Shown here in pieces: positions 27,021 through 54,084 of a stretch of 64,000 bases of DNA (position 1 is the stretch's first letter; every line of letters begins with the position of its first letter). Position numbers and translations under genes: made by a program. This stretch comes from Acidimicrobiales bacterium (GTDB taxonomy: Bacteria; Actinomycetota; Acidimicrobiia; Acidimicrobiales; SZUA-35): assembly GCA_020630195.1 (NCBI GenBank), contig JAHDBV010000004.1, positions 6,990 to 70,989 of the forward strand, read 5' to 3'. Under the pieces are notes generated by a model that saw only the letters and a list, made by a program, of their open reading frames with translations, had not been told where the DNA came from and did no database searches.

Positions 27021-28277
27021 TCAGCCGAACGTGGGCTGTCGGGTGGTGGCGACCACCCGGGCCCAGACGTCGCCGTGCGGGTCGAGCTGGCGACGACGTC
27101 CGGTCGCCAGCTCGATCGGCAGGATCGTGGCGTGCCCGGACCAGTGTCCGATGACGACGTCGGTGAAGCCGGCGATCGCCGCATGGGCGGCGTCCTGGCC
27201 GAGTGCGGTGCAGAAGGCCGAGTCCTCCGCGTTCGCTCGACAGCCCCGGATCAGGTAGCTCGGATCGATGTAGCGGATCGAGGCCCCGGTGAGACGCCGA
27301 GCGAGTTCGTCGCGGAGATGGGCTCCGATGTCGCCCAACCGGGCGTTGCCCGACGCATCCCTGCCCTCGGTGGGGACGAGCTGTTGGCCGGCACCCTCGG
27401 CCACCGCGATCACGGCGTGACCCCGGGCGTCCAGGCGGCGATCGAGGTGCGCCACCAGTCCGGTCGGCCCCTCGAGCTCGAGGGGGATCTCGGGCACGAG
27501 GCAGACGTTGACGTCGGGGTCCGCGATCGTGGCCTGGGCGGCGATGAACCCGGAGTGTCGGCCCATCAACCGGACGATGCCCACCCCTCGATCCACCCCA
27601 CGGGCTTCGTCGTGGGCGACCTCGATCGCCTCGGTGGCACGTTGGACCGCGGTGATGAATCCGAAGGACCGTTCGATCCAGTCGATGTCGTTGTCGATCG
27701 TCTTCGGGACCCCGACGACGGCGAGGCGGAGGTCGCGACCCAGCGCTTCCCGGGCGATCGCCGAGGCGCCCCGGAGCGTGCCGTCGCCACCGATGCAGAT
27801 CAGGATCGAGACGCCGTCCGCGGCGAGGGTGTCGACCATCTCGGCGACGTCCTGTGGGCCCCGGCTCGAGCCGAGCAGGGTGCCGCCGTGCCGGTGGATC
27901 GCGTCCACGGCGTCATGGGTGAGCGCGATCGGCGCCGCTCGCCCGGTGGCGAGGCCCGCGAAGCCGTAGCGATAGCCGAGCACTTCTTCGACGCCGTGAT
28001 CGTGGCGAAGTGTCAACGTCACACTCCGGATCACGTCGTTGAGTCCCGGACACAGGCCGCCACAGGTCACGATGCCGGCCCGGACGCCCGTTGGCTCGAA
28101 GGCCCGGTCGGCGCGTCGTCCGGCGGGCACGAAGGTCGCCGTCGTCGCCTCCAGCTCCGCGTCGGTCCGTGCGACCAGCACAGCGGGCCGGTCGGTTCGG
28201 TCCTCGGCGAGACCCGGCAGACGGGTGGGTGTCGTCTGATGCGGTCGGAGCGGAGTGGTCGCCGGGCGTGTCGTCAT
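27021..28277 (-). CDS. 6-phosphofructokinase (PfkA family, ATP- or PPi-dependent)
   Basis: Motifs GIVTCGGLCPGLN, IGGDGT, PKTIDNDI and MGR over the full length. The start overlaps the stop of the upstream small ORF (ATGA). Confidence 0.9.
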   Translation of the reverse strand: MTTRPATTPLRPHQTTPTRLPGLAEDRTDRPAVLVARTDAELEATTATFVPAGRRADRAFEPTGVRAGIVTCGGLCPGLNDVIRSVTLTLRHDHGVEEVLGYRYGFAGLATGRAAPIALTHDAVDAIHRHGGTLLGSSRGPQDVAEMVDTLAADGVSILICIGGDGTLRGASAIAREALGRDLRLAVVGVPKTIDNDIDWIERSFGFITAVQRATEAIEVAHDEARGVDRGVGIVRLMGRHSGFIAAQATIADPDVNVCLVPEIPLELEGPTGLVAHLDRRLDARGHAVIAVAEGAGQQLVPTEGRDASGNARLGDIGAHLRDELARRLTGASIRYIDPSYLIRGCRANAEDSAFCTALGQDAAHAAIAGFTDVVIGHWSGHATILPIELATGRRRQLDPHGDVWARVVATTRQPTFG

Positions 28278-28513
28278 CCGACGGCGAGGAACAGGGTCTC
28301 GACCGTGGTGGTGGTCGTGGTGGTCTCGTCCACGAGATCGACGAGCCGTGGGTCGGGCAGACCGGCGATCCGCTGACGCACGATCATGTCGCGATCGTCG
28401 CCCATCACCCAGCCCTCGGGGAGCAGGCCGGCGACGATCGCCAACTCCTGGAGGTCACGGATGCGTTCGAAGAGAAGGGCTTCCATCTCGTGCCGTGTTG
28501 CGGTGGGAAGCAT
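28274..28513 (-). CDS. Hypothetical small protein (79 aa) translationally coupled to pfk
   Basis: ATG at 28513, with the stop overlapping the pfk ATG. Coding-like codon usage. It contains a Thr7 run. No family recognised. Confidence 0.45.
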   Translation of the reverse strand: MLPTATRHEMEALLFERIRDLQELAIVAGLLPEGWVMGDDRDMIVRQRIAGLPDPRLVDLVDETTTTTTTVETLFLAVG

Positions 28514-28614
28514 GGGCTGACCTTTCGTCATGTTGGGTCGGATGGGTCGGTGGACCGTCCCGTTGTCATGGTCGCCTGCATCGGCTGGTGTCGACAGGGT
28601 CTTCGGTCCTTGCG

Positions 28615-29049
28615 TCACCGGGGTCGGACGAGCACCACACATGCATCGACGGTCGACGGCAGGAACCGGGCCAGACGGGGACGAGCCGTGGCCAGATCGC
28701 CGAGGAGACGTTCCGTCGTCGTCGGGTCCATGTCCCCGCGGTGAGCCGTTGCCCGGCCCCGCACGGTCGATCCCCGCAGGATCAGCCGGAGCTCGTGCCC
28801 ATCGCCCGTGAAGTTCCGCCACCACGTCTTGTGCTCGTGGCCTCCGGCGAGGATCAGGACCGCACCGTCGGGTCGCTCGCCGTACTGGGTTGGCGTGCGG
28901 TACCGCCGGCCGCTCCGTCGCCCCCGGTAGTCGATGACGCAGAACCACCGGGACCACGGGCGATGCCATCTGGATGTGAGCAGCCGGATCATCATCCGGT
29001 TGGCCAGCCCGGTGCTGGCCGGGCCCACCGGTCGGCCGGGCCCGGTCAC
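28615..29049 (-). CDS. Deazaflavin-dependent nitroreductase-like (DUF385 / split beta-barrel flavin fold) protein
   Basis: The DUF385-like core is YRGRRSGRRYRTPTQY...VLILAGGHEHKTWWRNF. 144 aa. It overlaps the upstream gene's stop by 4 nt. Confidence 0.6.
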   Translation of the reverse strand: MTGPGRPVGPASTGLANRMMIRLLTSRWHRPWSRWFCVIDYRGRRSGRRYRTPTQYGERPDGAVLILAGGHEHKTWWRNFTGDGHELRLILRGSTVRGRATAHRGDMDPTTTERLLGDLATARPRLARFLPSTVDACVVLVRPR

Positions 29050-30155
29050 CGGGCGTCCCCCGGGTTCGTGGCTCGGCCGCGTTCGGCCGGGGCGAGTTCG
29101 GCGACCTTCGCGGAGCGTCCGAGTCCGAGGGACCGACTTGCGAGAGCGCCGGGGATGATCCGGTCCTCGATGAGGTGGACCCGTTCGTCGAAGTGGAGGA
29201 ACGCGCTCTTCGCGGCGTTGAGTTGGAGCTGCTCGACGTCGCGCAGATCGAGGTCGCCCTCCTCGCAGACCCGGGCGAGCACCTCCGAGAGCGGTCCGCT
29301 GCGATGCCGTTCGCCGGTGTTGACCGTCACCCGGAACCGCAGATCGTGGAGCTGCCGCAGATCATCGACGGTGCTCGTACCCGGGTGGGTGCCGCCGGCA
29401 CACCATTCGATGGCGAGTCGCCGATCCCGGACCTCGCTCGCGAGCGGTCCGAGCGTGGGTTCGGAGTCATCCGAGCGGTCGATGTCGGAGATGACCGGGA
29501 CGGATGGCCCCAGCCGTCGTGCGCCGTGCTCAGTGACGGTCATGCCGGCCGTCTCCTTGTCGCCGGCATCGATCGTGATCGGCAGATGGGCCGCCCGCAC
29601 CAGGGCGAGAGCCGCCTGTGCACGGGCCGGCGGGTGGCCGTGGGGGTAGGCGGTTTCGAGCGCGAAACCGACCACGCCACCGTCGCGCCAGCGGATCGCG
29701 AGATGGGCGAGATCCTCGATGTGTTCGGAGGTCTCGTGGGCGGCGCACACGATGCGCAGGTCGATCGGGGCCGCCGCCATGGCCAGATGGAACCCCTCGA
29801 AGGCGGCGCCGAGCACGGTGTCGAGCGTCAGACCCGCCCCGAGATGATGCTCCGGATGCACCTGGACCTCGGCATGCACGACGCCGTCCGCGGCGAGGTC
29901 GAGCCCGCACTCGCGAGCCACCCGCACGATCGAGTCGCGGGTGCGGAGCAGCTCGCCCGTGGCGGCGTGCAGCTCCTCGATCGGGCCGGTCGCCAGTTGC
30001 CGGTGGAGCGCTCGGGGGTCGGCCGTGCCGAGATCGACGCCGGCCTCGGCGGCCAGGTCGAGAAGCGTGGACGGGCGGACACCGGCGTCGAGGCGATCCC
30101 GGAGAAGGACCTTCGGCAGGGTCCGGAGTTCGGTGAGGCTCGGTGGGGAGGACAT
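29046..30155 (-). CDS. Adenosine/AMP deaminase-family protein with degenerate metal/catalytic motifs
   Basis: It is collinear with the adenosine deaminase family (LPKVLLRDRLDAGVRPSTLLDLA...). However, HxH becomes RDR, HAGE becomes DAGDKE, and TDDP becomes TGER. Confidence 0.7.
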   Translation of the reverse strand: MSSPPSLTELRTLPKVLLRDRLDAGVRPSTLLDLAAEAGVDLGTADPRALHRQLATGPIEELHAATGELLRTRDSIVRVARECGLDLAADGVVHAEVQVHPEHHLGAGLTLDTVLGAAFEGFHLAMAAAPIDLRIVCAAHETSEHIEDLAHLAIRWRDGGVVGFALETAYPHGHPPARAQAALALVRAAHLPITIDAGDKETAGMTVTEHGARRLGPSVPVISDIDRSDDSEPTLGPLASEVRDRRLAIEWCAGGTHPGTSTVDDLRQLHDLRFRVTVNTGERHRSGPLSEVLARVCEEGDLDLRDVEQLQLNAAKSAFLHFDERVHLIEDRIIPGALASRSLGLGRSAKVAELAPAERGRATNPGDAR

Positions 30156-30203
30156 GTCCCGAGCCTCACCCGGGCGATCGGCCGCTCCCAGGGCCGAAAG
30201 GCC

Positions 30204-31103
30204 TCACCGGGTGGCCGCGGCGCGGTGAGCAAGCCGTTCGTCGATCGAGGTGAGGATCTCCGCTGTCGACCGTCGGATCGTCCGCTCGCCGTCGCCGAAC
30301 CACACTTCGATGGGCGGGAGCCTCGGGTCGTCGGTTCGGCCAGCCGGCTCCGGCGGCCGATCGGGACGTAGGTCGGACACCACGACGTCGGCGTCGTCGC
30401 GCAGCGCGCAGCTCTCGCCACGGCGAATCGGACAGTGCTCCCCTGATCCGGCCATGGCGGTGCAGATGGCCCACTCCACCTCCCGTTCCTCGAGTTGGGC
30501 TTCGGCGAACCAGCGGGTCCGTTCCGACTCGATCAGCACCCGCGGCCGGCCGCTCGTCGACCAGACGGGAACGTCACCCGTCGTCGGCATCGTGAGCTGC
30601 ACACATCCCCACTCGGGATGCCCGGTCACGGCGAAGCCTCGTCGCCGCGCGAGGCCGAGCATGGCTGCGTTGTTCGCCCGGACAACCGCGTCGACCCGGT
30701 CGACGCCCCGCGCCCGAGCGTGCGCGAACAGCCGGTCGAGCAGTTCGTGGCCGAGCCCACCCCGGACCCGTGATGAGAGTGCGATGCCGAGCTCGAGCCC
30801 GCCGGAACTCGTGGGCGCGAGTCCGGCATCGCCCACGATCTCCGCACCGTTGCCGGTCAGTCGCTCGACGACGAGGAGGACACCTCCGTCGTCCTCGATC
30901 GTGAGCCAGCGGTCGTAGAACCCCGATCCGGGTGTCATCGGGCGGAAGAAGCGGAACTGGCGATCCCGGTCGGAGAGCTCCTCGTAGAGGCGCTCGAGTC
31001 CGGATCGGTCGTCTTGGACGGCGTGGCGGACCCGCAGCATCGAGCCGTCGGCGCGCGCGAGCTCGGGGCCGCACTGCTCACACCGGGTGTCGTCAGTCTC
31101 CAT
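30204..31103 (-). CDS. GNAT-family N-acetyltransferase with C-terminal extension
   Basis: The acetyl-CoA binding region is LSSRVRGGLGHELLDRLFAHARARG...ANNAAMLGLARRRGF. The start overlaps the upstream USP stop by 11 nt. Confidence 0.7.
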   Translation of the reverse strand: METDDTRCEQCGPELARADGSMLRVRHAVQDDRSGLERLYEELSDRDRQFRFFRPMTPGSGFYDRWLTIEDDGGVLLVVERLTGNGAEIVGDAGLAPTSSGGLELGIALSSRVRGGLGHELLDRLFAHARARGVDRVDAVVRANNAAMLGLARRRGFAVTGHPEWGCVQLTMPTTGDVPVWSTSGRPRVLIESERTRWFAEAQLEEREVEWAICTAMAGSGEHCPIRRGESCALRDDADVVVSDLRPDRPPEPAGRTDDPRLPPIEVWFGDGERTIRRSTAEILTSIDERLAHRAAATR

Positions 31104-31536
31104 GGATGATCAGCACGTTCGTCCGCGCGTGGTTGCTGACCTTCGACGAGACGCTGCCCCGGAGAAATCGGGTCGTCGCCCCGACACCCCGGCTCCCCAC
31201 ACAGATGAGATCGGCGTGCGTCGTCTCCGCCACGTCGAGAATCGCCGACGCGGGGTCGTCGGAGACCAGGTGGGTTTCACAGCGCAGGCCGAGCCGCTCG
31301 CATGCCCGGGCCGCGTCCCGGAGGGCCGTCTGGGGAGCGGCCACCGGATCGATGGTCGACTTGAACTCGTCGGGGACCGACGCCAGCAACGTGGCGACCT
31401 CGCGGGCGGACGGTGGGTCGAACGCGGTCACGACGTGCACCGTGGCCGCGGCTGGAACGATCCGGGCCACGGCGTCGATCGCTGCCTCGGCATGGGGGGA
31501 GCCGTCGAACCCGACGACGATGTTGTTGAGTTCCAT
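31093..31536 (-). CDS. Universal stress protein (single USP domain)
   Basis: IVVGFDGSPHAEAA...ICVGSRGVGATTRFLRGSVSSKVSNHARTNVLIIH. The G-2x-G-9x-G(S/T) ATP motif is present. Confidence 0.9.
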   Translation of the reverse strand: MELNNIVVGFDGSPHAEAAIDAVARIVPAAATVHVVTAFDPPSAREVATLLASVPDEFKSTIDPVAAPQTALRDAARACERLGLRCETHLVSDDPASAILDVAETTHADLICVGSRGVGATTRFLRGSVSSKVSNHARTNVLIIHGD

Positions 31537-31598: not shown

Positions 31599-31612
31599 GG
31601 GCCCTAGGGCCC
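31599..31612. promoter_or_regulatory. Perfect 14-bp palindrome GGGCCCTAGGGCCC (DosR-box-like) in the divergent USP/pckG promoter region
   Basis: Exact palindrome, flanked by the inverted repeat GGAGGTCC (31580-87) / GGACCTCC (31632-39). It lies 63-76 nt from the USP ATG and 68-81 nt from the pckG ATG. Confidence 0.45.
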
Positions 31613-31679
31613 GATCGCGAGAGGACGGTCGGGACCTCCGCCTCTGCCCGGGTGTCGGAGGGTTCGTGATCGTTCGGAC

Positions 31680-33554
31680 ATGGCTTCGATCACCGACCGC
31701 ACTGTCACGAACCACCCCCCGACGGCCTTGCGTCACGCCGGCGTCCGCTCGTGGGTCGACGAGATCGCGTCGCTGACCTCGCCGGAGGAGGTGCGATGGT
31801 GTGATGGCAGTGCCGGGGAGTACGCAGAGCTCTGTGACGCCCTCGTGGACGCCGGCACGTTCGTCCGCCTGGATCCGGTCTTGAGGCCCAACAGCTTCCT
31901 CGCACGGACCGACCCGAGCGATGTCGCCAGGGTCGAGGATCGCACCTTCATCTGCTCACAGACCGCTGAGGACGCGGGACCCACGAACAACTGGGTGGAA
32001 CCGGCGGAGATGCGTCGGGAGCTCCGGGCCTGGTTCTCCGGCTCGATGCGGGGCCGGACCCTCTACGTCATTCCGTTCTCGATGGGCCCCGTGGGTTCGC
32101 CGATCTCTCAGATCGGGATCGAGATCACCGACTCGCCGTATGTCGTGGTGAACATGGCGATCATGGCCCGGGTCGGTGACGAGGTGCTCGAGGCCCTGGG
32201 TGCCGACGGCGAGTTCGTGCGATGCCTCCACTCCGTGGGTGCCCCGCTCGAGTCCGGCGCGCAGGACGTGGCCTGGCCGTGCAACCCGGACGTGAAGTAC
32301 ATCTCCCACTTCCCGGAGGATCGGGAGATCTGGAGCTATGGCTCCGGGTACGGCGGCAACGCGTTGCTCGGCAAGAAGTGTCTCGCATTGCGGATCGCCT
32401 CGACGATGGGTCGTGACGACGGCTGGATGGCCGAACACATGGCGTTGATCGGTGTCCGCTCGCCCGATGGGGCGACGAGCTACGTCGCGGCGGCGTTCCC
32501 GTCGGCCTGTGGCAAGACCAACTTCGCGATGCTCATCCCACCAGCGGAGATGGCGTCCAAGGGCTGGGCGGTCACGACCGTCGGCGACGACATCGCCTGG
32601 ATCAAGCCCGACGAGCAGGGCAGGCTGCGGGCGATCAACCCCGAGGCCGGCTACTTCGGGGTCGCCCCCGGCACCTCGGAAGCGACCAACCCCAGTGCGA
32701 TGGCGACGATCCGGGAGAACACGATCTTCACCAACGTGGCCCTCACCGACGCTGGTGACGTCTGGTGGGAGGGGATGGGCGTCGACGCCCCCGAGCATCT
32801 GATCGACTGGCGGGGGCAGGACTGGTCACCCGGTTCGGACACCCCCGCCGCCCACCCGAACGCCCGCTTCACCGCGCCGGCCGACCAGAACCCGGTGATC
32901 GACGACCGCTGGGACGACCCGGACGGTGTGCCGATCTCGGCGTTCGTCTTCGGCGGTCGGCGCTCGGGCACGATGCCCCTCGTGGTCCAGGCTCCGAACT
33001 GGGCCTACGGCGTGTACCTGGCCGCCACGATGGGTTCGGAGACCACCGCCGCCGCCTTCGCGCAGCAGGGGGTGGTGCGGCGTGACCCCTTCGCCATGCG
33101 CCCGTTCGCCGGCTACCACATGGGGAGCTACATCTCGCACTGGCTCAACGTCGGTCGGCGACTGTCGGCCCCACCGCGGATCTTCGCGGTGAACTGGTTC
33201 CGACGTGACGAGAACGGCGACTTCACGTGGCCGGGCTTCGGAGAGAACATGCGGGTGCTGGCGTGGATCGTCGAGCGTGCCGAAGGCGGCGCGGGAGCCA
33301 TCGAGAGTCCGCTGGGTTGGATGCCGACGCATCGCGATCTCGACTGGGACGGGCTCGACCATCCCGAGGAGGCGTTCCTCGAGGCCATGTCGGTCCACCG
33401 GGACGAATGGGCCGCCGAGCTCACCGCCCACGACGAGCTCTTCGTGAACCTGTGGGATCGCATCCCGAAGGAGATGCTGGCGGTCAAGGAGCTGCTCACG
33501 AGCGGCCTGTGGCGGTCGCCCGAGGACTGGGCGATGCTCCCCGACCCGACCTGA
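31680..33554 (+). CDS. pckG: Phosphoenolpyruvate carboxykinase (GTP)
   Basis: 624 aa with the kinase-1a loop FPSACGKTN and GTP-PEPCK-specific blocks (WMAEHM, GDDIAW, NPNARFT, FGGRR). Confidence 0.95.
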
Positions 33555-33682: not shown

Positions 33683-33991
33683 TCAGATGCGTCGTTCCAG
33701 GCGCCCGACGAGGTCGGCCACCGCAGCCCTGGCGGTCGTGGCGGTCGCCCGGAAACACACGGCGGCACCGTCGCGGTCGACGGTCGTCTCGGCGACGATC
33801 AGGTCGCCCTGTCGATCCGGCAACGTCCGGAGCCGAACGGCGAGGAGCGATCGAGCGGGTGTCCCGGCGCGCAGCACCATCGTGACCCGACTCGAGAGCT
33901 CGTCCACGAGCGCCGGGTCGAGGTGTGGGTCCGACACGACCTCGACGAGCGAGGTGGCGTCGTCGCTCCGGGGAGGCCGTCGATCGGTCAT
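33683..33991 (-). CDS. Small HPF/RaiA N-domain-like protein
   Basis: ATG at 33991. 102 aa with a beta-alpha-beta-beta-beta-alpha-like pattern ending ...TTARAAVADLVGRLERRI, as in the HPF core. Low sequence certainty. Confidence 0.45.
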   Translation of the reverse strand: MTDRRPPRSDDATSLVEVVSDPHLDPALVDELSSRVTMVLRAGTPARSLLAVRLRTLPDRQGDLIVAETTVDRDGAAVCFRATATTARAAVADLVGRLERRI

Positions 33992-34874: not shown

Positions 34875-34978
34875 GGTCGGTCCTTCCGGTGGTCGTCTCC
34901 ATCGTCGGGTCGACCGCCGGCGTCGATCAGAGGCGAACGTCCCGAGTGGGTGATGCCGATCGGTGTCAGGATCGGCGC

Positions 34979-36298: not shown

Positions 36299-36388
36299 CG
36301 GTGCCATCCGGGCTCGGGCCGAAGGACCCTACGTCCCTGTTGCTCCCTCGTTCATGCTGACGGGGGACGAACAGAGACGAGGACATCC

Positions 36389-37381: not shown

Positions 37382-37405
37382 TCGGCCGGAACGAACCCCG
37401 ACGCC

Positions 37406-45673: not shown

Positions 45674-47273
45674 CGTGGGTCTCGATGATCGGGAGGGTGA
45701 AGATGAACGTGGCGCCATCGCCGGGTTCGGAATGCACCGAGATGGTTCCGCCGTGCCGCTCGACGATCCGCTGGCACAGCGCGAGCCCGATCCCGACGCC
45801 GTCGTAGCCGGCATGGGCCCGCTTGAAGAGCTCGAAGACCCGCTCGTGGTGGGCGGCATCGATCCCGACGCCGTTGTCGGCCACGGCGATCCGCCAGGTG
45901 CCATCGGCCTCGTCGCCGGCGATGGAGATCACCGGCGGCCGATCATCGGCCCGGTATTTGATCGCGTTCTCGACGAGGTTCTGGAGGAGCTGCTCGAGCA
46001 TGGTCGCGTGTCCACGCACGGTCGGGAGGGCCCCGAGTTCGATCCGTCCGCCGAGGTCGTCGAGCGTCGGGCGGACGCGGGCCACGACGAGATCGGCGAG
46101 GGCGTCGAGGTCGACCGGAGTCCCGTCCTCGATCTGGGGCCCCTGGACACGTGAGTAGGACAGCAGCGCCTGGATGAGACGTTCCATCCGCCCGACCGCG
46201 TCCGACGTGAGCTGCTTCAGCTCGAGCGCCTCGTCGTCGAAGCCCGTGCCGATGGTGTTCGTGAGGTGCTCGTCGAGCAGGTCCATTCCCTGGCGGACGT
46301 TGCGGAGCGGCGTCTGGAGATCGTGGGAGGCGATGTAGGCGAACTGCTCGAGATCGCGGTTCGAGCGGGCGAGATCGGCCATCGACCGGCGCAGCTCGGC
46401 GGTGCGTTCGGCGACGCGGGACTCGAGTACGTCGTTGGCCTCGGTGAGTCGGCGTTCAGCCTCGACCCGTTCGGTCAGGTCGTGGAGCACACCCGTGAAA
46501 ACCCGGCCGTTCGGGGTGACGACCTCGCTGACCGCGAGCGCGACGGGGAACGTCGTGCCATCGGCCCGCAGCGCCGTGACGTCCCGGCCGATGCCGATGA
46601 TGTGCGGTTCACCCGAGGTGAGATAACGCTCGAGATAGCCGGCGTGCTCGGAGCGGAACGGCTCCGGCATGAGTTTGGTGACGTTCCGGCCGACCAGCTC
46701 GCTCGCAGGCCATCCGAACAGCTCCTCGGTGGCGTCGTTCACCTCGAGCACGAGTCCGGTCTCGTCGATGAGAACGATCGGGTCGACAGCGGTCCGGAGC
46801 ACGGCCCGGAGCAGGTCCTCCGATCGGGTGGCGCCCCGGATCCGCTCGCGTTCCCGGGTGACGTCCCGGGCGAGGAGAACGACCCGGTCACCGTCCGGGA
46901 TGAGGGTCCACCACCCGAATCGGCCGGCCTCGGTCGTGAAGAGCCGCCGGGGTTCGGTGTCGGCCGCGGCCGCCTGGACCAGTTCGGTGAACGTCCGCTC
47001 GTCGGGCTCGCCGTCGTCGCCGAGCACGGTCGGCTCGAGCACGTTGCCGACCGCGAGCCCCCAGGACGCGCCGACGGCGTTCGTCGCGAGGATCCGTCCC
47101 CCGGTGTCGACCACGACCACCGGATCCGGCCCGGCGGTCGTCCACGGGGGGAGGTCGATGTCGATGTTGTTCTCCCCCGGCATCCGCCCATGGTCGACCA
47201 TCGGGACCCGTGTGGCAACCATCCGCGACGACGTGGCCGCGACGGTCTTTGGGCCCTGTTCGAGCGTTGCCAT
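45666..47273 (-). CDS. PAS-PAS sensor histidine kinase; second PAS is FixL-type (heme/O2-sensing-like)
   Basis: By recollection, the second PAS (LMPEPFRSEHAGYLERYLTSGEPHIIGIGRDVTALRADGTTFPVALAVSE...VFTGVLHDLTE) is near-collinear with the Bradyrhizobium FixL heme domain. The match includes the proximal His (codon 46644-46646). HisKA H-box ASHDLQTPLRNV, HATPase N/G boxes (NLVENAIKY, DNGVGI, GIGLALC). The start is uncertain (ATGs at 47273, 47222, 47201, 47183). Confidence 0.85.
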   Translation of the reverse strand: MATLEQGPKTVAATSSRMVATRVPMVDHGRMPGENNIDIDLPPWTTAGPDPVVVVDTGGRILATNAVGASWGLAVGNVLEPTVLGDDGEPDERTFTELVQAAAADTEPRRLFTTEAGRFGWWTLIPDGDRVVLLARDVTRERERIRGATRSEDLLRAVLRTAVDPIVLIDETGLVLEVNDATEELFGWPASELVGRNVTKLMPEPFRSEHAGYLERYLTSGEPHIIGIGRDVTALRADGTTFPVALAVSEVVTPNGRVFTGVLHDLTERVEAERRLTEANDVLESRVAERTAELRRSMADLARSNRDLEQFAYIASHDLQTPLRNVRQGMDLLDEHLTNTIGTGFDDEALELKQLTSDAVGRMERLIQALLSYSRVQGPQIEDGTPVDLDALADLVVARVRPTLDDLGGRIELGALPTVRGHATMLEQLLQNLVENAIKYRADDRPPVISIAGDEADGTWRIAVADNGVGIDAAHHERVFELFKRAHAGYDGVGIGLALCQRIVERHGGTISVHSEPGDGATFIFTLPIIETHDA

Positions 47274-47316
47274 CGGTGGGACAACGGAGTGAGACACCAG
47301 CGTTCCTGGAGGAATC

Positions 47317-48888
47317 ATGTCCGTGCTCGAGACAGCCACCGTCGACGAACCCGTCGCCGTTCGTCATCCGTCGCCACCGGTTCAACCCGCCTCGTCGGGC
47401 TTCGTGCTGGCGATCGTGTTGGGCCTGGGGGCGATCTTCATGCTCGGCCTGGTGGCGATCGCCGGCATCGGTCTCGCCACGGCCGACGGTGCGCCACCGA
47501 CGCCATCGACGACGATCGACGTGTCGCTGAGTGAGTTCCGGATCGATGGTGCACTCGTGGCGCCGGCCGGAGAGGTGACCCTGCGGATCACGAACGCGGG
47601 CTCGATGTCGCACAACGTGGCGGTCACCGAGCTCGACGTCGTCAGCCAGAACGTCGGCCCGGGTGGGGTGACCGAGCTGGCGCTCGGCGAGCTCGCGCCC
47701 GGCGCGTACGAGCTGTTCTGCGACATCGCCGGCCATCGCGAGTCCGGCATGGTCACCACGCTGACGATCACGGGCGACGGGTCTGAACTCGCCGCCGACG
47801 GACACGCCGGCCATGGCCACGGTGCCGACACCGACTGGCAGGCGATGGACGAGGCGATGATGGCGACGATGCTCGCCTTCCCGGCTGAGACCGAGGGCAC
47901 CGGCAATCCGGTGCTCGAACCGACCGAGATCCTCGCCGACGGCACCAAGGTCTTCGATCTGACCGCCGAGATCGTCGACTGGGAGGTCGAGCCGGGCAAG
48001 TTCGTGGAGGCCTGGACGTACAACGGCGTCGTGCCGGCCCCCCAGATCCTGCTGGATCGGGGCGACACCGTCGACATCCGCATCCACAACGAGCTCCCGA
48101 TGAGCACCGACGTCCACTGGCACGGGGTACACACCCCGAACGACATGGACGGCGTGGCGCCCTACACCCAGGAGATGATCACGCCGGGTGAGACCTTCAC
48201 CTACTCGTTCACCGCCCACCACGATGCGATCGGGATGTATCACGCCCACCACCACGGGCAGATGCAGGTCGTGAACGGCATGTTCGGTGCCATCCGGATC
48301 GGGGAGAACCCCGTTCCCTACGGCGGCACCTTCAGCGGCGTGTACATCCCGGAGGACCTCGAGCTCGCCGCCGACATCCCGATGGTGCTCAACGACGCCG
48401 GCACGATCGGTCTGAGCCTCAACGGCAAGAGCTTCCCGGCGACCGAACCTCTCGTGCTCGAGCAGGGCGACTGGGCGTCGGTCACGTACTACAACGAAGG
48501 GCTCCAGATCCATCCGATGCACCTGCATCAGTTCCCGCAGCTGGTCTACGCGAAGGACGGCGTGCCGCTCGACCATCCGTATTGGGTCGACACACTGAAC
48601 GTGGCACCCGGCGAGCGGTACACCGTGCTGTTCCGGGCCGACGATGCGGGCACCTGGGTCTGGCACTGCCACATCCTGAACCACGTCGAGCGTGACACCG
48701 GGATGTTCGGCATGGTCACGGCGATCGTCGTCACACCGAACCCCGGGTTCGATCCCGAGGAGAATCCGGTGGCGCCGAGCAACTGGCGCAATGTCGGCAC
48801 CAGCGCCGACGGCCCGGTGACGGCCGACGTCGATCGCGATCACGGAGCGGGCGACGGCGCACACACCCACAGCGCCGACGGCGCCTGA
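47317..48888 (+). CDS. Membrane-anchored multicopper oxidase with N-terminal cupredoxin (type-1 Cu) domain
   Basis: TM anchor FVLAIVLGLGAIFMLGLVAIAGI. The cupredoxin has H/C/H/M ligands (SMSHNV...FCDIAGHRESGM). The MCO copper motifs are HWHG, MYHAHHHG, HPMHLH and WHCHILNHVERDTGM. Confidence 0.85.
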   Translation: MSVLETATVDEPVAVRHPSPPVQPASSGFVLAIVLGLGAIFMLGLVAIAGIGLATADGAPPTPSTTIDVSLSEFRIDGALVAPAGEVTLRITNAGSMSHNVAVTELDVVSQNVGPGGVTELALGELAPGAYELFCDIAGHRESGMVTTLTITGDGSELAADGHAGHGHGADTDWQAMDEAMMATMLAFPAETEGTGNPVLEPTEILADGTKVFDLTAEIVDWEVEPGKFVEAWTYNGVVPAPQILLDRGDTVDIRIHNELPMSTDVHWHGVHTPNDMDGVAPYTQEMITPGETFTYSFTAHHDAIGMYHAHHHGQMQVVNGMFGAIRIGENPVPYGGTFSGVYIPEDLELAADIPMVLNDAGTIGLSLNGKSFPATEPLVLEQGDWASVTYYNEGLQIHPMHLHQFPQLVYAKDGVPLDHPYWVDTLNVAPGERYTVLFRADDAGTWVWHCHILNHVERDTGMFGMVTAIVVTPNPGFDPEENPVAPSNWRNVGTSADGPVTADVDRDHGAGDGAHTHSADGA

Positions 48889-48941: not shown

Positions 48942-50180
48942 TCAGGCGGCGGCGCGGGTCTTGCGGAGCACCGGGTCGGCGGCTGCCAGGGTCCGGTCGG
49001 CCAGTCGCAACACCGTGCCGGCGGCGCCCGGGGTCTCGGAGTCGACGAGGTTGCCCATCACCTGGAGGGTGATGTCGGCGATGGCCTGGGTGCCCACGGC
49101 CACCCGCAGCCCGGAGCGCAGGATCCAGGGGTGGCCGATGAGGAACGAGAAGCGGCGGCCGGTGCGGAGGAAGGCATCGAAGCGTTCCCCGACCTCCACG
49201 TCGTATCGCTCGGCGGCGGTGGCCGGGTCGGCGAGGAAGAGGTCGCTGAGGAGCATCCCCGACTCGAGGCCGTAGTCGATGCCCTCGCCGTTCATCGGGT
49301 TGACGAGACCGGCGGCGTCGCCCACGGCCACCCAGCCGGGGCCGTGGCGCTTCTGGGTCGACATCGGCAGACGCCACGCCCGGGGCCGTTCCTCGAACTC
49401 GCCCAGTTCCCACTCGTCCTGCACGAGCCCGCGGTAGGCCTCGAGCAGCTTGTTGAGGTTGAGCTTCTTGAAGCCCTTCATGGTCGACAGTGCGCCACAA
49501 CCGATGTTCACGGTGCCGTCGCCGGCGGGGAACATCCAGCCGTAGCCCGGCACGGCGGTGCCGTGTTCGTCCGAGAGCGTGAGGCACGCCTCGAGGTGGG
49601 CATCCGCGTGGCGGGGCGAGGTCGCGTAGGTGCGGATGGCGAGGCCGAACGGCTCGTCCTCCATGCGGACCGCGCCCAGCATGCGGGCGACCTTGCCGGG
49701 GGCGCCGGTGGCGGCGACGGTCATGGGGGCGCGCACCTCACCACCGGGGTGACGGACGCCGATCACGCGGTCGCCGTCGAGCACCGGTTCGGCTTCGACC
49801 GAATAGCGGATGTCGGCACCGGCCTCGGCGGCGGCGTCGATGAGTGCGGCGTCGAGGCGGCGGCGGGGCCAGACGGCACCGTGCCCCGGGAAGCGGGCCG
49901 AGGAGGGCCAATCGAGTTCGCGACGGGTCTTGCCGGCGATCATCCGCAGGCCCTGGATCCGGTGGGCGTCGTCGAGGTCGATGTCGAGTTCGTTCAGCGC
50001 CGCCACGGCGCGGGGAGTGAGGCCGTCGCCGCAGACCTTGTCGCGGCCGTGGGCGCCCTTCTCGAACACGATCACCTTCGCTCCGCCACGGGCGGCGCGA
50101 ATGGCGGTGGCGGCCCCCGCGGGCCCGCCGCCGATCACGACGACGTCGGCGGTTTCGTGAGCGTTGCCGGTGGTGTCCAC
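48942..50180 (-). CDS. Geranylgeranyl reductase family FAD-dependent oxidoreductase (MenJ-like)
   Basis: GTG at 50180 is preceded by GGAGGG. FAD motif DVVVIGGGPAGAATA, and CGDGLTPRAV typical of the family. About 412 aa. Confidence 0.8.
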   Translation of the reverse strand: MDTTGNAHETADVVVIGGGPAGAATAIRAARGGAKVIVFEKGAHGRDKVCGDGLTPRAVAALNELDIDLDDAHRIQGLRMIAGKTRRELDWPSSARFPGHGAVWPRRRLDAALIDAAAEAGADIRYSVEAEPVLDGDRVIGVRHPGGEVRAPMTVAATGAPGKVARMLGAVRMEDEPFGLAIRTYATSPRHADAHLEACLTLSDEHGTAVPGYGWMFPAGDGTVNIGCGALSTMKGFKKLNLNKLLEAYRGLVQDEWELGEFEERPRAWRLPMSTQKRHGPGWVAVGDAAGLVNPMNGEGIDYGLESGMLLSDLFLADPATAAERYDVEVGERFDAFLRTGRRFSFLIGHPWILRSGLRVAVGTQAIADITLQVMGNLVDSETPGAAGTVLRLADRTLAAADPVLRKTRAAA

Positions 50181-50308
50181 CCCTCCAGCGTGCCCGATCC
50201 CGGCGGTCTTTCCCTGATCGAACGACCGTGTCGCCCGACACGTGGTCGCCGGGTCGATCGGGCGGCCCACTGGACCGCTGGCCCGCCCCGCGGGACACTG
50301 GCTGCGTG

Positions 50309-51859
50309 ATGCAACAGTTGAGCGGGCTGGATGCGAGCTTCCTCTCGATGGAGAGCAGCACGACGGTGGGTCATGTCACCGGCGTGTTGTTCCTCGATCC
50401 GTCGACCTCACCGGAGCCGTGGACCTTCGAACGATTCCAGCGCCACCTGCGCTCGGTGCTGGCCGATCTCGGCCCGTTCAGCCGCAAGTTGGTGGAGGTC
50501 CCCTTCGGGCTCGACCGGCCGTATTGGATCAACGATCCCGATGTCGACTTCGACTACCACGTGCGCCATGTCGCCGTGCCGGGGGACGGCACGCGGGATG
50601 ATCTGGCCGATCTGGTGGCCCGGATCCACGCCCGCCCACTCGACCGTCGACGTCCGCTCTGGGAGGCCTACGTCGTCGACGGGGTCTTCGGCGACAAGAT
50701 CGCCCTGATCACCAAGATCCACCACGCCGCCATCGACGGGCTCTCCGGGCAGGAGATCCTCGCCGCGCTCGTCTCGCTCGATCCGGCCGAGCCGGTGAAG
50801 GACGACCCGGGCACGATCGAACGCGAAGAGGCGCTCTCGTCCGAGGAGGTGCTCGGTCGGGCACTGCTCGGGCTCGTGTCGTCGCCGGTCCGCATGATCC
50901 AGGTGGGCACCCAACTCGCCCGGGCCCTGCCGGTGCTCGGCCCCAGCCTCGGCCGTCTGTCGCCGGTGGCTCGGGGCGACGAGTCGCGTCGGGAGCTCGT
51001 GTCCCGTGTCGGTTCGGCGCCTCGCACCCCGTTCAACGCCATGATCGGCCCGCATCGGCGCTGGTCGTTCGTGTCGGTGCCGCTCGCCGATGTGAAGGCG
51101 ATCAAGAACGAAGCCGGCACCACCGTGAACGACGTCGTCCTGGCGATCGTGTCCGGCGTGCTGCGCCGCTGGCTCGAGGAGAACGGCGGCGTTCCGGACC
51201 GACCGCTCGCGGCGATGGTGCCGCTCTCGGTCCGCCGTCCGGATCAGGCCAACGCGGTCGGCAACTTCGTCTCGTCGACGATCGCCACCCTCGCCACCCA
51301 CCTCGAGTCGCCGGGTGAGCGCCTGTCGGCGATCCACGACGGCATGGTGCACGCGAAGACGACGTCGGGTGCGCTCGGCGCCGACATCCTCGCTGACATC
51401 ACCCAGGTGGCCCCGCCAGCGGTGGCCGCACTCGCCGGCCGGTTGATCGCCTCGACGAAGCTCGCCGACCGGATGACGCTGCCGTTCAACGTGGTGGTGT
51501 CGAACGTGCCCGGCCCGCCCGTGCCGCTCTACCTGGCCGGTGCCGAGGTGATCGGCCACTACCCGGTGTCGGCCATCGTCGACGGGGTCGGTCTGAACAT
51601 CACGGTGGTGTCGACCAACGGCAATCTCGACTTCGGCTTCGTGTCCGATCGGGATCTGGTGGCCGACCTGTGGGCGATGTCCGACGTCATCCCGGAGGTC
51701 GTGGCCGAGCTCGCCGAGTCGGTCGGGGCGACCCTGCCGTCGGCGGCTGCCGCGGCCCCGGCGAAGAAGAAGCCCGCCGCGAAGAAGGCCGCGCCGAAGA
51801 AGGCCACCAAGAAGCCGGCGGCCAAGAAGAAGCCGGCGGCGAAGAAGTCGGCCGGCTGA
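50309..51859 (+). CDS. Wax ester synthase / diacylglycerol acyltransferase (WS/DGAT) with C-terminal Lys/Ala/Pro-rich tail
   Basis: ATG at 50309 (MQQLSGLDASFLSMES). Active-site HHxxxDG (HHAAIDGLSG). C-terminal family blocks NVPGP..PLY.AGA. The last 37 aa are PAKK-type repeats. Confidence 0.9.
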   Translation: MQQLSGLDASFLSMESSTTVGHVTGVLFLDPSTSPEPWTFERFQRHLRSVLADLGPFSRKLVEVPFGLDRPYWINDPDVDFDYHVRHVAVPGDGTRDDLADLVARIHARPLDRRRPLWEAYVVDGVFGDKIALITKIHHAAIDGLSGQEILAALVSLDPAEPVKDDPGTIEREEALSSEEVLGRALLGLVSSPVRMIQVGTQLARALPVLGPSLGRLSPVARGDESRRELVSRVGSAPRTPFNAMIGPHRRWSFVSVPLADVKAIKNEAGTTVNDVVLAIVSGVLRRWLEENGGVPDRPLAAMVPLSVRRPDQANAVGNFVSSTIATLATHLESPGERLSAIHDGMVHAKTTSGALGADILADITQVAPPAVAALAGRLIASTKLADRMTLPFNVVVSNVPGPPVPLYLAGAEVIGHYPVSAIVDGVGLNITVVSTNGNLDFGFVSDRDLVADLWAMSDVIPEVVAELAESVGATLPSAAAAAPAKKKPAAKKAAPKKATKKPAAKKKPAAKKSAG

Positions 51860-51868
51860 GGCCGGCGG

Positions 51869-52996
51869 CTACTCCCAGAGCGAGACGACGAGCCCGCGGT
51901 CGGCGGGGATGTCCCCCTGCACGACCGACACCCAGGCCCCGGCGACACTCTCGGCCGACACGGCGTGGTCGACCGCGATCCAGTCGGCCGCGGCCTCGAT
52001 GAAGGCGGCCCAGGAGGTGGCGAGGCGGGCCTCGTACTCCTCGCGGCCCCACTCTCCGATGCGGTTGACGATGTGGTCGGGGGCGAAGAAGAACTCGCGG
52101 TCGGGGCCGGGCATCTCGGCCTGCCCACCGAGGGCTTCCCAGTGGGTGCCGCCCACGATGACCGAGCGCAGGAGGTGGGTGCCGGCAGCGGTGTGGGCCT
52201 CGGCGACCACCTCGCTGTTGCCGGCGAAGTCGATGAGGGCCGACGGGCCGACGGGTGACCAGTCGGCGATGGCGTCGTAGCCGATCACCTGGTCGTACAC
52301 GCCGGTGCTCTCCACCTGCTCGATCCGGCTCGGTGAGGTGAACCCGACGACCCGGGCCCGGCCGCTCGCGTGCAGCAGGTGGGCGAGTGCGAGGGCCGTC
52401 TTCGACGAGGCGCTCGTGAGGGCGACCTCGGCGAGCTCGTCGCCGGTGGCGAGGGCGGCGTCGATGAGGAACGAGGTGGTGAACAGTGGCCGGAACAACA
52501 TCTGGTCGTCCTCGGTGCCGATCTCGAAGCCCGGGTCGGCGGCGACGCGGGTGTAGCCGTTGTAGACCGGCGGCAGGGCGGCGCGGTGCTCGGCGGCGTC
52601 GACGAACGACGTCGGGCCGACCTTGGCCGGAGTGACCGTGAGGTGGGTCGACATCGGGAAGTAGCCGTAGATGCGTTCGCCGACGGCGAGTTCGTCGACG
52701 GTCGACTCGCTGATGTCGGCGAAGCCCCACACCGGGACGCGGCCCCAGCCCTCGGGGGCGGGGAAGAACTTCCAGTAGCCCATCATCTCGCCGAAGGCGG
52801 CGTAGGTGACGTTGTTGGCCGTGAGGCTGAAGGTGTCGATGCGCAGCCGCACCTCACCATCGGCGAGGGGAGCGAGCTCCTCGGTGACGATGTCGGTCCG
52901 GGCGATGTCGCCGGGGGCGACCAGGACGTGTTCGTTGCGGGCTTCGTGAGCGGCGTCGTCGGCGATGGCCATGCCGGCGACGCTAGCGACGAACAT
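51869..52996 (-). CDS. DUF2855 family protein (MDR-like fold, function unknown)
   Basis: The pattern ...FSLTANNVTYAAFGEMMGYWKFFP...WGRVPVWGFADI..S....L.VGERIYGYFPM..HL is as in DUF2855 proteins. The start may be the ATG at 52972. Confidence 0.65.
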   Translation of the reverse strand: MFVASVAGMAIADDAAHEARNEHVLVAPGDIARTDIVTEELAPLADGEVRLRIDTFSLTANNVTYAAFGEMMGYWKFFPAPEGWGRVPVWGFADISESTVDELAVGERIYGYFPMSTHLTVTPAKVGPTSFVDAAEHRAALPPVYNGYTRVAADPGFEIGTEDDQMLFRPLFTTSFLIDAALATGDELAEVALTSASSKTALALAHLLHASGRARVVGFTSPSRIEQVESTGVYDQVIGYDAIADWSPVGPSALIDFAGNSEVVAEAHTAAGTHLLRSVIVGGTHWEALGGQAEMPGPDREFFFAPDHIVNRIGEWGREEYEARLATSWAAFIEAAADWIAVDHAVSAESVAGAWVSVVQGDIPADRGLVVSLWE

Positions 52997-53110
52997 GCGA
53001 CGGATCGAACGGCGGCATGCGGTGACCTCCGGCAGCCGCGCTGGTGAGGACGAGGAGCAGTCGCACGTGTCCGACCATCGGATGAATCCGATCGGGTGGC
53101 TGCACCGGAT

Positions 53111-54034
53111 TCACCCTGCGGCCTCCGCATCCGATGCGTTCTCGGGACGAACGACGAGCACGGGGCACGGCGATTCACGCACAACTCGCATCGCGACACT
53201 CCCGAAGAGGAGGCGAGCGATCGACGGTCGGCGGTGACTCGCGACGATCACGGCGGCGATGGCCGGATCGGCGGCTCGCCGGACGATCGCATCGGCGGGA
53301 TCCCGGCCTTCCTCGATGACCAGCTTCGCCAGCCGACCGGAGTCGTCGTGCATGGCCTGCGCGGTTCGCGTGTGGTGCCTGAGACGCTCCCGGGTCGAGC
53401 GCCAGGTGGCGTGCTCGACGATCCGGTCCGCGGTGCTGCCGGTCCGGACGTGGACGAGGTCGACGTCGAGGCCATAGGCGTGCGACCAGCCTGTCGCGAG
53501 GTGTGCGATCCGATCATTGAGGTGTGCGTCGTCCGCGCCGACGATCAGGCGCCCGGCACCAGGTGTGGCGGCGGTCGTCCGCTGGCAACCCTGGCCCACG
53601 ATCAGAACCGGACCGCCGGTGAGCTGGAGGACGTTCTCGGCGAATGATCCGCGGAGCTCGCCGGTGCGGGCGTGTCCGGGGTCGGTGCACACGACGAGGG
53701 TGTTGTCCTCGCTTGTCTGCTCGCGGTGCATCATCTCGGCGATCCACGACGAGGCGGACCTCGACGTCGTCTCGACGATGCGTTGGTCGGCCGTCACGTC
53801 CGCCTCGAGTAGCTGACGGTCGATGATGCGGGTGATCTCGCGCTCCGACCCCGGATTCACGGCCGAGAAGGTCACGAGCTCCGCATCCGAGGCCTTCGCG
53901 AGGGCGGCGGCGGTCGGGATCGCCGCTGCGCCGCGGTCGCTCCCATCGAGCGCCACGACGATCCGTGTGTAAGGCGGAGCGGCGACCGGGTGCCGCTGCA
54001 TCGGATGGTCCGGTTTCTCGGTATGACCCTGCAT
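53111..54034 (-). CDS. Tandem universal stress protein (two USP domains)
   Basis: ATG at 54034 or 54001. The repeats are RIVVALDGSDRGAAAIPTA...LVVCTD...GPVLIVG and LIVGADDAHLNDRIAHLA...VIVASHRRPSIARLLFGSVAMRVVRESPCPVLVV. Confidence 0.85.
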   Translation of the reverse strand: MQGHTEKPDHPMQRHPVAAPPYTRIVVALDGSDRGAAAIPTAAALAKASDAELVTFSAVNPGSEREITRIIDRQLLEADVTADQRIVETTSRSASSWIAEMMHREQTSEDNTLVVCTDPGHARTGELRGSFAENVLQLTGGPVLIVGQGCQRTTAATPGAGRLIVGADDAHLNDRIAHLATGWSHAYGLDVDLVHVRTGSTADRIVEHATWRSTRERLRHHTRTAQAMHDDSGRLAKLVIEEGRDPADAIVRRAADPAIAAVIVASHRRPSIARLLFGSVAMRVVRESPCPVLVVRPENASDAEAAG

Positions 54035-54070
54035 GGACGTGAGATTGGACGGCGTCTGTTCTCGCGAACA

Positions 54071-54084
54071 GGGCCTGAAGTCCC
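54071..54084. promoter_or_regulatory. DosR-box-like element GGGCCTGAAGTCCC upstream of the tandem USP gene
   Basis: It matches 12 of 14 positions of the core of the M. tuberculosis DosR consensus (GGGACTWWAGTCCC). It lies 37-50 nt upstream of the ATG at 54034 on the minus strand. Confidence 0.4.

Follow-up and report, generated by a model that had tools for sequence, protein, structure and literature searches.

A predicted DevR/DosR-type stress regulon core with a putative kinase relay input in an uncultured Acidimicrobiales bacterium

The DosR (DevR) regulon of Mycobacterium tuberculosis includes genes for multiple universal stress proteins (USPs), the CBS-pair protein Rv2626c, the HPF/RafH-type factor Rv0079 and a phosphofructokinase (PFK) of the PfkB family, Rv2029c, together with the WS/DGAT gene tgs1. 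It is largely arranged in sub-clusters, such as Rv3126c-Rv3134c around devR. We analyzed a 64,000-nucleotide stretch of contig JAHDBV010000004.1 (assembly GCA_020630195.1), hereafter the window, from an Acidimicrobiales bacterium in which about 25 stress, ribosome-hibernation and fermentation-type genes surround a DevR/DosR-like regulator between about 21 and 54 kb. The clustering is genuine and not random. Judging from its sequence, we consider it probable that the locus is the chromosomal core of a DevR/DosR-type stress regulon with a kinase relay as its input. The genes are very probably regulated in common by the DevR orthologue, and homology and promoter motifs point to a function in hypoxia.

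Clusters of this general type have been described before. An earlier note on this DNA had held that a compact dormancy island was not a described unit, and this was wrong: a homologous region is known from Streptomyces coelicolor and an analogous one from Burkholderia cenocepacia. The core OsdR regulon of S. coelicolor is described as 'revolving around' the chromosomal region SCO0167-SCO0219, with 8 of the organism's 11 USP genes, gene synteny with the devR region, and the box AGGGCCGATCGGCCCT (Urem et al. 2016, PMC5069765). Both that region and the window have a DevR-orthologous NarL-type regulator that is autoregulating (by prediction in the window; PMC5069765 for OsdR), a palindromic box with the same GGGNC-N4-GNCCC core, and most of the USP genes around the regulator, along with a cNMP/Crp-type protein and redox enzymes. 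In Streptomyces, the regulator adjoins the kinase OsdK, considered a candidate DosT orthologue, and the locus has the Nar2 nitrate reductase and its transporter (PMC5069765). In contrast, the window, from an uncultured member of the class Acidimicrobiia, lacks nitrate respiration genes, has genes for HPF, phosphoenolpyruvate carboxykinase (PEPCK), a D-lactate dehydrogenase-like (D-LDH-like) enzyme, DeoC and a CoA-transferase, and carries a FixL-type relay instead of the adjacent sensor kinase.

The lxa locus of B. cenocepacia comprises 50 low-oxygen genes, including six USP genes, a sulphate-transporter gene, a PFK gene, and storage-polymer, fermentation-type and regulatory genes; 17 intergenic points have a promoter motif in common, survival without oxygen depends on the locus, and its authors compare it with the DosR regulon (Sass et al. 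2013, PMC3721108). Like the window, lxa is a compact locus with USPs, a sulphate transporter, a PFK and a common promoter motif. However, its motif is of the Anr/FNR type (TGA-N6-TCA), under CRP/FNR control in a proteobacterium, and the likeness is one of analogy, not homology.

With the DevR-DevS/DosT system of M. tuberculosis the window shares a regulator that is 51.5% identical over 206 residues, a kinase with a DosT/DevS-like catalytic domain, a box that resembles TTSGGGACTWWAGTCCCSAA (which we take to be the DosR consensus), and the USP, CBS-pair, HPF/RafH-type and WS/DGAT families. It differs in having no GAF-haem sensor; instead, a separate haem-PAS kinase apparently supplies the input by way of a receiver domain. 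The earlier note had also presented the PFK and nitroreductase-like proteins of the window as counterparts of DosR-regulon members. By homology they are not, the PFK being of the PfkA and not the PfkB type and the flavoproteins being split-barrel Pyridox_ox_2/Ddn-like and not Acg-type, and what is left is a functional analogy.

The cluster is a lineage-specific version of a known type of unit with an unusual sensor arrangement. New are the taxon, the metabolic complement (PEPCK, D-LDH-like enzyme, DeoC, CoA-transferase, adenosine deaminase and two HPFs) and the relay-type input; only the oxygen-sensing input looks unusual, clusters of this type having been described in Streptomyces and mycobacteria. 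The concept is unchanged by our results, as both the clustering of DevR-type regulons and low-oxygen loci that contain USP genes were already known. The DevR/DosR-type regulon and its box are extended to the Acidimicrobiia, an actinobacterial class that branches deeply, consists mostly of uncultured members and commonly occurs in water, soil and activated sludge. A literature search, of incomplete coverage and thus weak evidence of absence, found nothing on DosR/DevR in Acidimicrobiia or on a relay from FixL to a receiver-HisKA_3 kinase. Our findings suggest that control of USPs, ribosome hibernation and redox-balancing metabolism by a single NarL-type regulator is an ancient arrangement in actinobacteria, with a sensor input that is plastic.

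The regulator and its predicted box

Genes in the window were called by third-position GC and checked against the gene models of two metagenome contigs with the identical locus (L001 and L002), and the proteins were identified by searches of Pfam, NCBIfam and the PDB. The locus is present in the sequencing runs SRR14415275 and SRR14415273. For comparison, we used 80 regulator loci (L003-L082) of other Acidimicrobiales, with regulators 56-75% identical to that of the window; a gene type was counted as linked when it lay within 10 kb of the regulator. The closest relatives of the regulator (73-76% identity) come from metagenome-assembled genomes of Acidimicrobiales/Acidimicrobiia, and the best identity among the GTDB species representatives scanned, a set in which the window's own species does not figure, is 75%.

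38539-39192, plus strand: NarL-type DevR/DosR-like regulator (Pfam; PDB), last gene of the operon 36389-39192, behind the D-LDH-like and DeoC genes

This is the only NarL-type regulator in the window. The database model has 217 amino acids, one codon fewer than the 218-amino-acid form. Its best PDB match is DevR (3c3w, E 1e-60), with VraR next (1.8e-38) and NarL at 1.4e-30, and close homologues are named DevR by JGI. In the alignment to 3c3w, the receiver residues D8, D9, D54 (the phospho-acceptor), T82 and K104 are all conserved. The earlier note had proposed to compare the DNA-contacting residues: DevR and the window regulator have the same recognition segment, LAEKTVKNYVS, and it includes K179, K182 and N183, which we take to be DNA contacts in the DosR-DNA structure. 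Fifteen orthologous regulators in sister Acidimicrobiales adjoin GAF-HisKA_3 kinases; the one kinase inspected in detail (from L053) has a GAF domain that aligns with E-values of 3e-45 and 2e-42 to the haem-binding GAF-A domains of DosT and DevS, respectively. With the overall identity, the recognition helix and these neighbouring kinases in its favour, the earlier note's claim of a DevR/DosR orthologue is established at the level of these tools.

Binding sites were sought with patterns and with a matrix. The strict M. tuberculosis core, GGGACNNNNGTCCC, with one or two mismatches gave fewer matches in the window than in shuffled sequence and was replaced by a relaxed core, GGGNCNNNNGNCCC, which fits the published OsdR consensus. 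There are 7 exact matches to the relaxed core in the window, a chance number (7.6 expected), and 5 of the 7 are intergenic, compared to 0.8 expected. Because circularity was to be avoided, a matrix of 20 positions was built solely from other genomes, using 26 exact sites located no more than 250 bp upstream of homologues of window genes in the 80 loci. The exact box is present in 28 of 190 upstream windows (15%) across these loci, compared to a background of 2.5%. Among positions that the pattern leaves unconstrained, there is an A at -1 in 61% of the sites and an A or T at both central positions in 84%, in genomes of about 70% G+C. These positions reproduce the DosR/OsdR box, aGGGAC-CTTG-GTCCCt.

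The eight best matrix matches in the window are all intergenic, although intergenic DNA makes up 11.7% of the sequence, and all are in promoters within 21-54 kb. With a score of at least 10.5 there are 8 intergenic matches versus 0.21 expected, and none of 500 dinucleotide shuffles of the intergenic DNA reached 8. Predicted boxes mark at least eight promoters of cluster genes (matrix scores in parentheses):

43043-43056 with adjacent 43057-43070 (17.6, the best in the window): divergent promoter of the Pyridox_ox_2 protein and a USP
31599-31612 (17.0) and 31631-31644 (7.6): divergent promoter of a USP and PEPCK
36316-36329 (16.5) and overlapping 36324-36337 (14.4): at -66 and -58 of the D-LDH-like/DeoC/regulator operon
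21171-21184 (15.9) and 21332-21345 (10.9): upstream of the long HPF; also an exact match to GGGNCNNNNGNCCC
54071-54084 (14.7, at -44) and 54107-54120 (3.3): upstream of the tandem USP 53111-54034
28597-28610 (12.0) and 28544-28557 (3.9): candidate boxes far upstream of PFK
47243-47256 (10.2): box-like site at -67 of the multicopper oxidase and inside codons 1-18 of the kinase gene as annotated
30191-30204 (9.5): at -43 of adenosine deaminase
34930-34943 (9.2): weaker box between the divergent tandem USP and CoA-transferase genes

The boxes at 36316 and 36324 lie before the regulator's own operon and therefore imply autoregulation. From the sequence, we conclude that about ten transcription units are likely to form a DevR-type regulon core with autoregulation. 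The earlier note's grouping of these genes around a DosR-type regulator is borne out by DosR/OsdR-type boxes in their promoters, that of the regulator's operon included. We propose that the phosphorylated regulator would bind the 14-16 bp palindrome, at predicted positions 40-75 bp upstream of most start codons. It would activate the USP genes, the genes for two hibernation factors, PEPCK and the CoA-transferase, and, by positive autoregulation, its own operon. Further targets would be the Pyridox_ox_2 protein with the SulP transporter and adenosine deaminase with the Ddn-like protein, and probably the multicopper oxidase and PFK.

Related genomes repeat the theme. Of the 80 loci, 59 have one or more genes of these types near the regulator: USP genes in 39 (up to five per locus), Pyridox_ox_2 in 22, PEPCK in 12, multicopper oxidase in 9, cNMP-binding proteins in 6, CBS proteins in 5, HPF and CoA-transferase in 3 each, and WS/DGAT in 2. 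Gene order and content around the regulator vary among these genomes, and the unit is a recurring theme, not a fixed syntenic block.

This variability would also be expected if the cluster were a loose neighbourhood of stress and metabolic genes without a common regulator, brought together by chance or by shared segment ancestry, with box matches that are GC-rich noise. The chance-level total for the relaxed core and the scarcity of the strict core in the window (5 matches with no more than one mismatch versus 12 expected) fit such an explanation as well. However, the best matches to a matrix derived from foreign sequences all fall in intergenic DNA before genes of the set and far exceed the number in shuffled intergenic DNA, the unconstrained positions fit the DosR/OsdR consensus, and homologues of these genes in other genomes also have the box upstream. 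We consider it very unlikely that the neighbourhood is a loose one.

Along with the scarcity of the strict core, several points weigh against a DevR-type regulon as we draw it. The relaxed pattern was chosen after the window had been seen, though it agrees with the published OsdR consensus. The PFK box sits at -327, and because of this distance membership of PFK in the regulon is uncertain. The cNMP/CBS pair has only weak boxes (40097-40118, scores of 3.3-3.5). No convincing box was found by the matrix or pattern scans for the WS/DGAT, DUF2855 and MenJ-like reductase genes; the WS/DGAT promoter has a single one-mismatch site (50271-50284, at -31) that is outside the top 45 matrix matches. These genes of the right-hand part (48.9-53.0 kb) may merely adjoin the regulon. 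Unlike in M. tuberculosis, the hallmark DosR-regulon genes hspX, narK2/narX, fdxA and nrdZ and those for Acg-type nitroreductases are absent from the window, where no Pfam scan found a member of the HSP20, Nar or nitroreductase families. Lastly, the host is uncultured and known only from metagenomes.

A putative kinase relay as the input

A three-gene kinase/receiver operon (44211-47297) lies in the range that the earlier note had claimed for the cluster and was not on its gene list:

45666-47297, minus strand: FixL-type haem-PAS HisKA kinase (Pfam; PDB)
45242-45673, minus strand: single-domain receiver (Pfam), overlapping the FixL-like kinase gene by 8 bp
44211-45245, minus strand: receiver-HisKA_3-HATPase kinase with a DosT/DevS-like catalytic domain (Pfam, PDB), overlapping the receiver gene by 4 bp

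The PAS domain of the first kinase is homologous to that of rhizobial FixL (B. japonicum, 8js5/1dp6; E 1e-33). The proximal histidine is kept ('MPEPFRSEH' / 'MPEPDRSRH'), as is the FG-loop arginine, in the conserved 'IIGIGR'. FixL is also the top NCBIfam match, through the PAS domain, and the whole protein scores 173 bits versus an equivalog cutoff of 850; the kinase core is similar to bacteriophytochrome kinase cores as well. In contrast to FixL-FixJ, no FixJ-type partner is located beside the kinase, its neighbours being the lone receiver and the receiver-HisKA_3 kinase, and the downstream partner would be the receiver domain of another kinase. That second kinase, whose catalytic domain has DosT and DevS as its best PDB matches, is the only HisKA_3 kinase in the 64 kb. 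There is no GAF kinase in the window, and thus no GAF-haem HisKA_3 partner for the regulator there. The two receivers of the operon share 41% identity, compared to 25-30% between either of them and the receiver of the regulator; in the receiver-kinase, the acceptor Asp is part of 'ILLDLSLPD'.

Wiring of this kind has a described parallel. In the BphP1-AgR-ExsG-ExsF system of Rhizobium NT-26/Agrobacterium, a sensor kinase phosphorylates a free receiver and the receiver of a second kinase, inhibiting ExsG (Wojnowska et al. 2013, PMC3899027). As in the window, the four parts (a sensor HisKA-type kinase, a lone receiver, a receiver-kinase and a terminal response regulator) are encoded in one gene cluster. 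The bacterial light system has a red-light bilin input, a second kinase of the HWE type and, as output, the single receiver ExsF, whereas the window has a haem-PAS input, a HisKA_3 kinase and a NarL-type DNA-binding regulator.

The most economical reading of the sequence would be a cascade from the haem-PAS kinase through the receiver of the DevS-like kinase to the DevR-like regulator. The signal would then come from this co-transcribed relay and not from a GAF-haem DevS/DosT kinase. The FixL-type kinase would sense O2, and possibly NO or CO, and would phosphorylate the free receiver and the N-terminal receiver of the DevS/DosT-like HisKA_3 kinase, which in turn would set the phosphorylation state of the regulator. 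When oxygen is exhausted, translation would be shut down and carbon flow directed to redox-balancing reactions. Two points count against the cascade or blur it. With 5 kb between the regulator and the relay operon, which are encoded on opposite strands, the case for pairing them comes from family logic and co-occurrence. In addition, because phosphorylation of the ExsG receiver inhibits its kinase, the relay here could act in either direction.

Related genomes bear on the pairing. The receiver-HisKA_3 architecture is common in Acidimicrobiales, where it is found in at least 118 protein clusters with 44-52% identity over the full length. The relay operon recurs in one of the 80 regulator loci (L006) and in three long contigs (L083-L085) that were found through the receiver-kinase protein and are separate from those loci. 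In L083-L085, the genes for the FixL-like kinase and the receiver-kinase, usually joined by that for the free receiver, again form one co-transcribed group and adjoin USP, HPF, CBS, Pyridox_ox_2 and DeoC genes, and the best matrix matches in these contigs are upstream of the transcription units containing the relay. In L084, a DevR-like regulator that is 62% identical to that of the window lies 3.5 kb upstream of the relay operon. In L006, the receiver-fused HisKA_3 kinase belongs to an operon of the same three genes, and PEPCK adjoins this operon. Among the 80 loci, the input of the partner HisKA_3 kinase is a fused PAS domain in about 40 (FixL-like in the several that were inspected), a DosT/DevS-type GAF domain in 15, and a receiver in one, L006.

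These loci can also be read in another way, in which the DevR-type regulon is real but the relay operon is a mere member of it with some other output, and the regulator is served by a kinase encoded elsewhere or by several kinases. The distance between regulator and relay would be expected in this case, as would the conventional PAS- or GAF-HisKA_3 kinase that adjoins the regulator in 55 of the 80 loci and the relay operons of L083 and L085, which have no DevR-like regulator within 10 kb; dosT, presumably, is likewise unlinked to devR in M. tuberculosis. However, the window has a sole HisKA_3 kinase and a sole NarL-type regulator, the catalytic domain of that kinase is most like those of DosT and DevS, a DevR-like regulator lies within 3.5-5 kb of the relay operon in the window, L006 and L084 alike, and the relay operon has the regulator's box in L083-L085. 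We therefore regard a separate kinase for the regulator as unlikely and favor the cascade through the DevS-like kinase.

Extending this cascade to the order, we tentatively suggest that many Acidimicrobiales might have replaced the direct haem sensor of DevRS/DosT with a two-tier kinase cascade under feedback from the DosR box, with the free receiver perhaps serving as a phosphate sink or modulator. If this is true, an order with such a cascade alongside simpler PAS- or GAF-fused HisKA_3 designs would be a natural series for studying how sensors are rewired onto a conserved dormancy-type regulon. The boxes and the gene list provide a marker set for hypoxia responses in metatranscriptomes of these organisms.

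Two observations concern the operon itself. The annotated GTG start of the FixL-like kinase gene is 19 bp from the divergent multicopper oxidase gene and makes the box at 47243 part of the kinase coding sequence. With a start at one of the in-frame ATGs (47222, 47201 and 47183), that box would lie 28-67 bp upstream. The homologues in L083-L085 are shorter by 134-155 residues, and the true start may be an ATG further downstream. Separately, a gene for an AAA_33/zeta-toxin-like P-loop kinase of about 500 amino acids always adjoins the relay operon in L083 (11083-12681), L084 (6929-8416) and L085 (11129-12778); that of L085 has a promoter box, and there is no such gene in the window.

Genes of the cluster and its borders

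The stress and ribosome-hibernation genes of the cluster and their immediate neighbours are:

21381-22112, plus strand: long HPF, S30AE plus C-terminal domain (Pfam; HPF/RafH matches in the PDB)
22109-23044, plus strand: ABC ATPase (Pfam), 4-bp overlap with the long HPF gene
23041-24156, plus strand: ABC-2 permease (Pfam), 4-bp overlap with the ABC ATPase gene
28615-29049, minus strand: small Ddn-like deazaflavin oxidoreductase, sub-threshold (TIGR00026, 29.8 bits versus a cutoff of 46)
29046-30155, minus strand: adenosine deaminase (Pfam), 4-bp overlap with 28615-29049
30204-31103, minus strand: GNAT acetyltransferase (Pfam)
31093-31536, minus strand: USP (Pfam), overlapping the acetyltransferase gene by 11 bp
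33683-33991, minus strand: small HPF-fold protein (AlphaFold and Foldseek only)
34014-34874, minus strand: tandem USP (Pfam), followed in the same direction by the small HPF-fold gene
39195-39572, minus strand: CBS pair protein (Pfam)
39599-40033, minus strand: cNMP-binding domain protein (Pfam)
40120-41784, minus strand: SulP-STAS transporter (Pfam), downstream of 41796-42995
41796-42995, minus strand: 399-amino-acid protein with a C-terminal Pyridox_ox_2 domain (PF12900; Pfam) and an N-terminal alpha/beta region without a family
43106-43531, plus strand: USP (Pfam)
43531-44226, plus strand: USP, weak (Pfam, 41 bits)
53111-54034, minus strand: tandem USP (Pfam)

The five USP genes verified by Pfam in the window all lie within 31-54 kb, and four of their promoter regions have a box scoring at least 9. 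The earlier note had counted six, and the sixth, the N-terminus of 41796-42995, was not verified. Neither Pfam (E up to 1) nor phmmer detected a USP signal in the N-terminal 275 residues, and hhalign against the USP profile gave a probability of 12%. The AlphaFold model, made from a two-sequence alignment, has an overall pLDDT of 43 and stays under 50 for almost all of these residues; the homologue search for this region returned two proteins only, too few for a deeper alignment. In L084 (11153-13074), the gene for an M50 peptidase containing CBS domains comes after a USP gene, an architecture that we take to be that of the M. tuberculosis DosR-regulon pair Rv2624c/Rv2625c.

Both ribosome-hibernation genes that the earlier note had proposed have support. 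Pfam confirms the larger one (21381-22112), which probably forms a single operon with the two ABC transporter genes (21381-24156), and HPF homologues adjoin the regulator in L003, L025, L035 and L084. The smaller one (33683-33991) is supported by its predicted fold alone: it has no sequence-family match, and a direct sequence comparison with HPF also failed. In its single-sequence AlphaFold model (pLDDT 71.5), the secondary-structure elements follow the HPF order, beta-alpha-beta-beta-beta-alpha, and the top 36 Foldseek matches in the PDB are all HPF/YfiA/pY/RafH, with a TM-score of 0.70-0.71 and 25-26% identity to the M. smegmatis hypoxia ribosome factor RafH (8whx). The window thus has ribosome-hibernation factors of the Rv0079/RafH type, in the form of the long HPF with its boxes and the small HPF-fold protein.

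Pfam also agreed with the earlier note on the CBS pair, the cNMP-binding protein and the SulP-STAS transporter. Of the flavin split-barrel/nitroreductase-like proteins in that note, the C-terminus of 41796-42995 stood as Pyridox_ox_2, and 28615-29049 had weak, sub-threshold similarity to the Ddn type. The adenosine deaminase and acetyltransferase genes were absent from its list. Beyond its range, box-like sites at 3754-3767 (10.4) and 3917-3930 (9.3) surround the start of a gene for a 954-amino-acid GGDEF-EAL protein (3900-6764), with a divergent neighbour at 2857-3879. This gene may be a further member of the regulon that links the regulator to cyclic di-GMP signalling.

The metabolic genes and those at the right-hand edge are:

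27021-28277, minus strand: ATP-dependent 6-phosphofructokinase, PfkA-type (Pfam PF00365; NF005301, 509 bits)
31680-33554, plus strand: GTP-dependent PEPCK (Pfam; NF003253, 961 bits)
34979-36298, plus strand: acetyl-CoA hydrolase/transferase family (Pfam; top match butyryl-CoA:acetate CoA-transferase, below cutoff)
36389-37381, plus strand: D-2-hydroxyacid dehydrogenase, D-LDH-like (Pfam)
37457-38491, plus strand: DeoC aldolase (Pfam)
47317-48888, plus strand: multicopper oxidase, a membrane-anchored cupredoxin plus a two-domain oxidase (Pfam; PDB two-domain laccase 2zwn, E 1e-41)
48942-50270, minus strand: geranylgeranyl-reductase family/MenJ-like flavoprotein (Pfam/NCBIfam)
50309-51859, plus strand: WS/DGAT (Pfam; TIGR02946, 456 bits)
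51869-52996, minus strand: DUF2855 (Pfam)

The PFK, GTP-PEPCK, CoA-transferase and DeoC assignments of the earlier note were upheld by Pfam and NCBIfam, and the WS/DGAT triacylglycerol synthase gene that it had reported is present. Its D-lactate dehydrogenase is safely a member of the D-2-hydroxyacid dehydrogenase family; the top NCBIfam matches are D-lactate dehydrogenases, all below cutoff. The multicopper oxidase, MenJ-like and DUF2855 genes were not in its list.

The right border raises the question of whether the cluster is a horizontally acquired, mobile 'hypoxia island'. A lower-GC, strongly strand-skewed region of 2.2 kb without clear genes lies there (54.0-56.2 kb), and gene order differs among relatives, as might be expected of such an island. 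However, G+C, which is 70% for the window, is uniform over 21-54 kb (0.69-0.72) and equal to that of the flanks, scans for tRNAs and Rfam families found no RNA gene in the window, no integrase or transposase was found among the proteins scanned with Pfam, and all close homologues are from the same order. With neither a compositional nor an integrase signal, we rejected a mobile island as highly improbable.

Some stretches near the borders deserve mention in their own right. The 2.2 kb at 54035-56214 have no convincing gene and no Pfam, Rfam or tandem-repeat signal, with a GC content of 0.60-0.68 compared to about 0.70 elsewhere; at 54.2-54.7 kb the strand bias is very strong, with GC skew up to +0.44 and AT skew down to -0.6. 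This right-border segment of the cluster may represent foreign DNA or the remains of a gene. On the left, the interval 24270-27020 contains an open reading frame (ORF) of 650 amino acids with high first-position GC and no Pfam or NCBIfam match, followed by 798 bp without a called gene directly to the left of the PFK gene. Further left, two Pfam-supported ORFs, a PIG-L deacetylase (19352-20593, minus strand) and a TauE/SafE exporter (20160-20891, plus strand), overlap by about 430 bp as longest ORFs, and therefore at least one of the two true starts must be further in.

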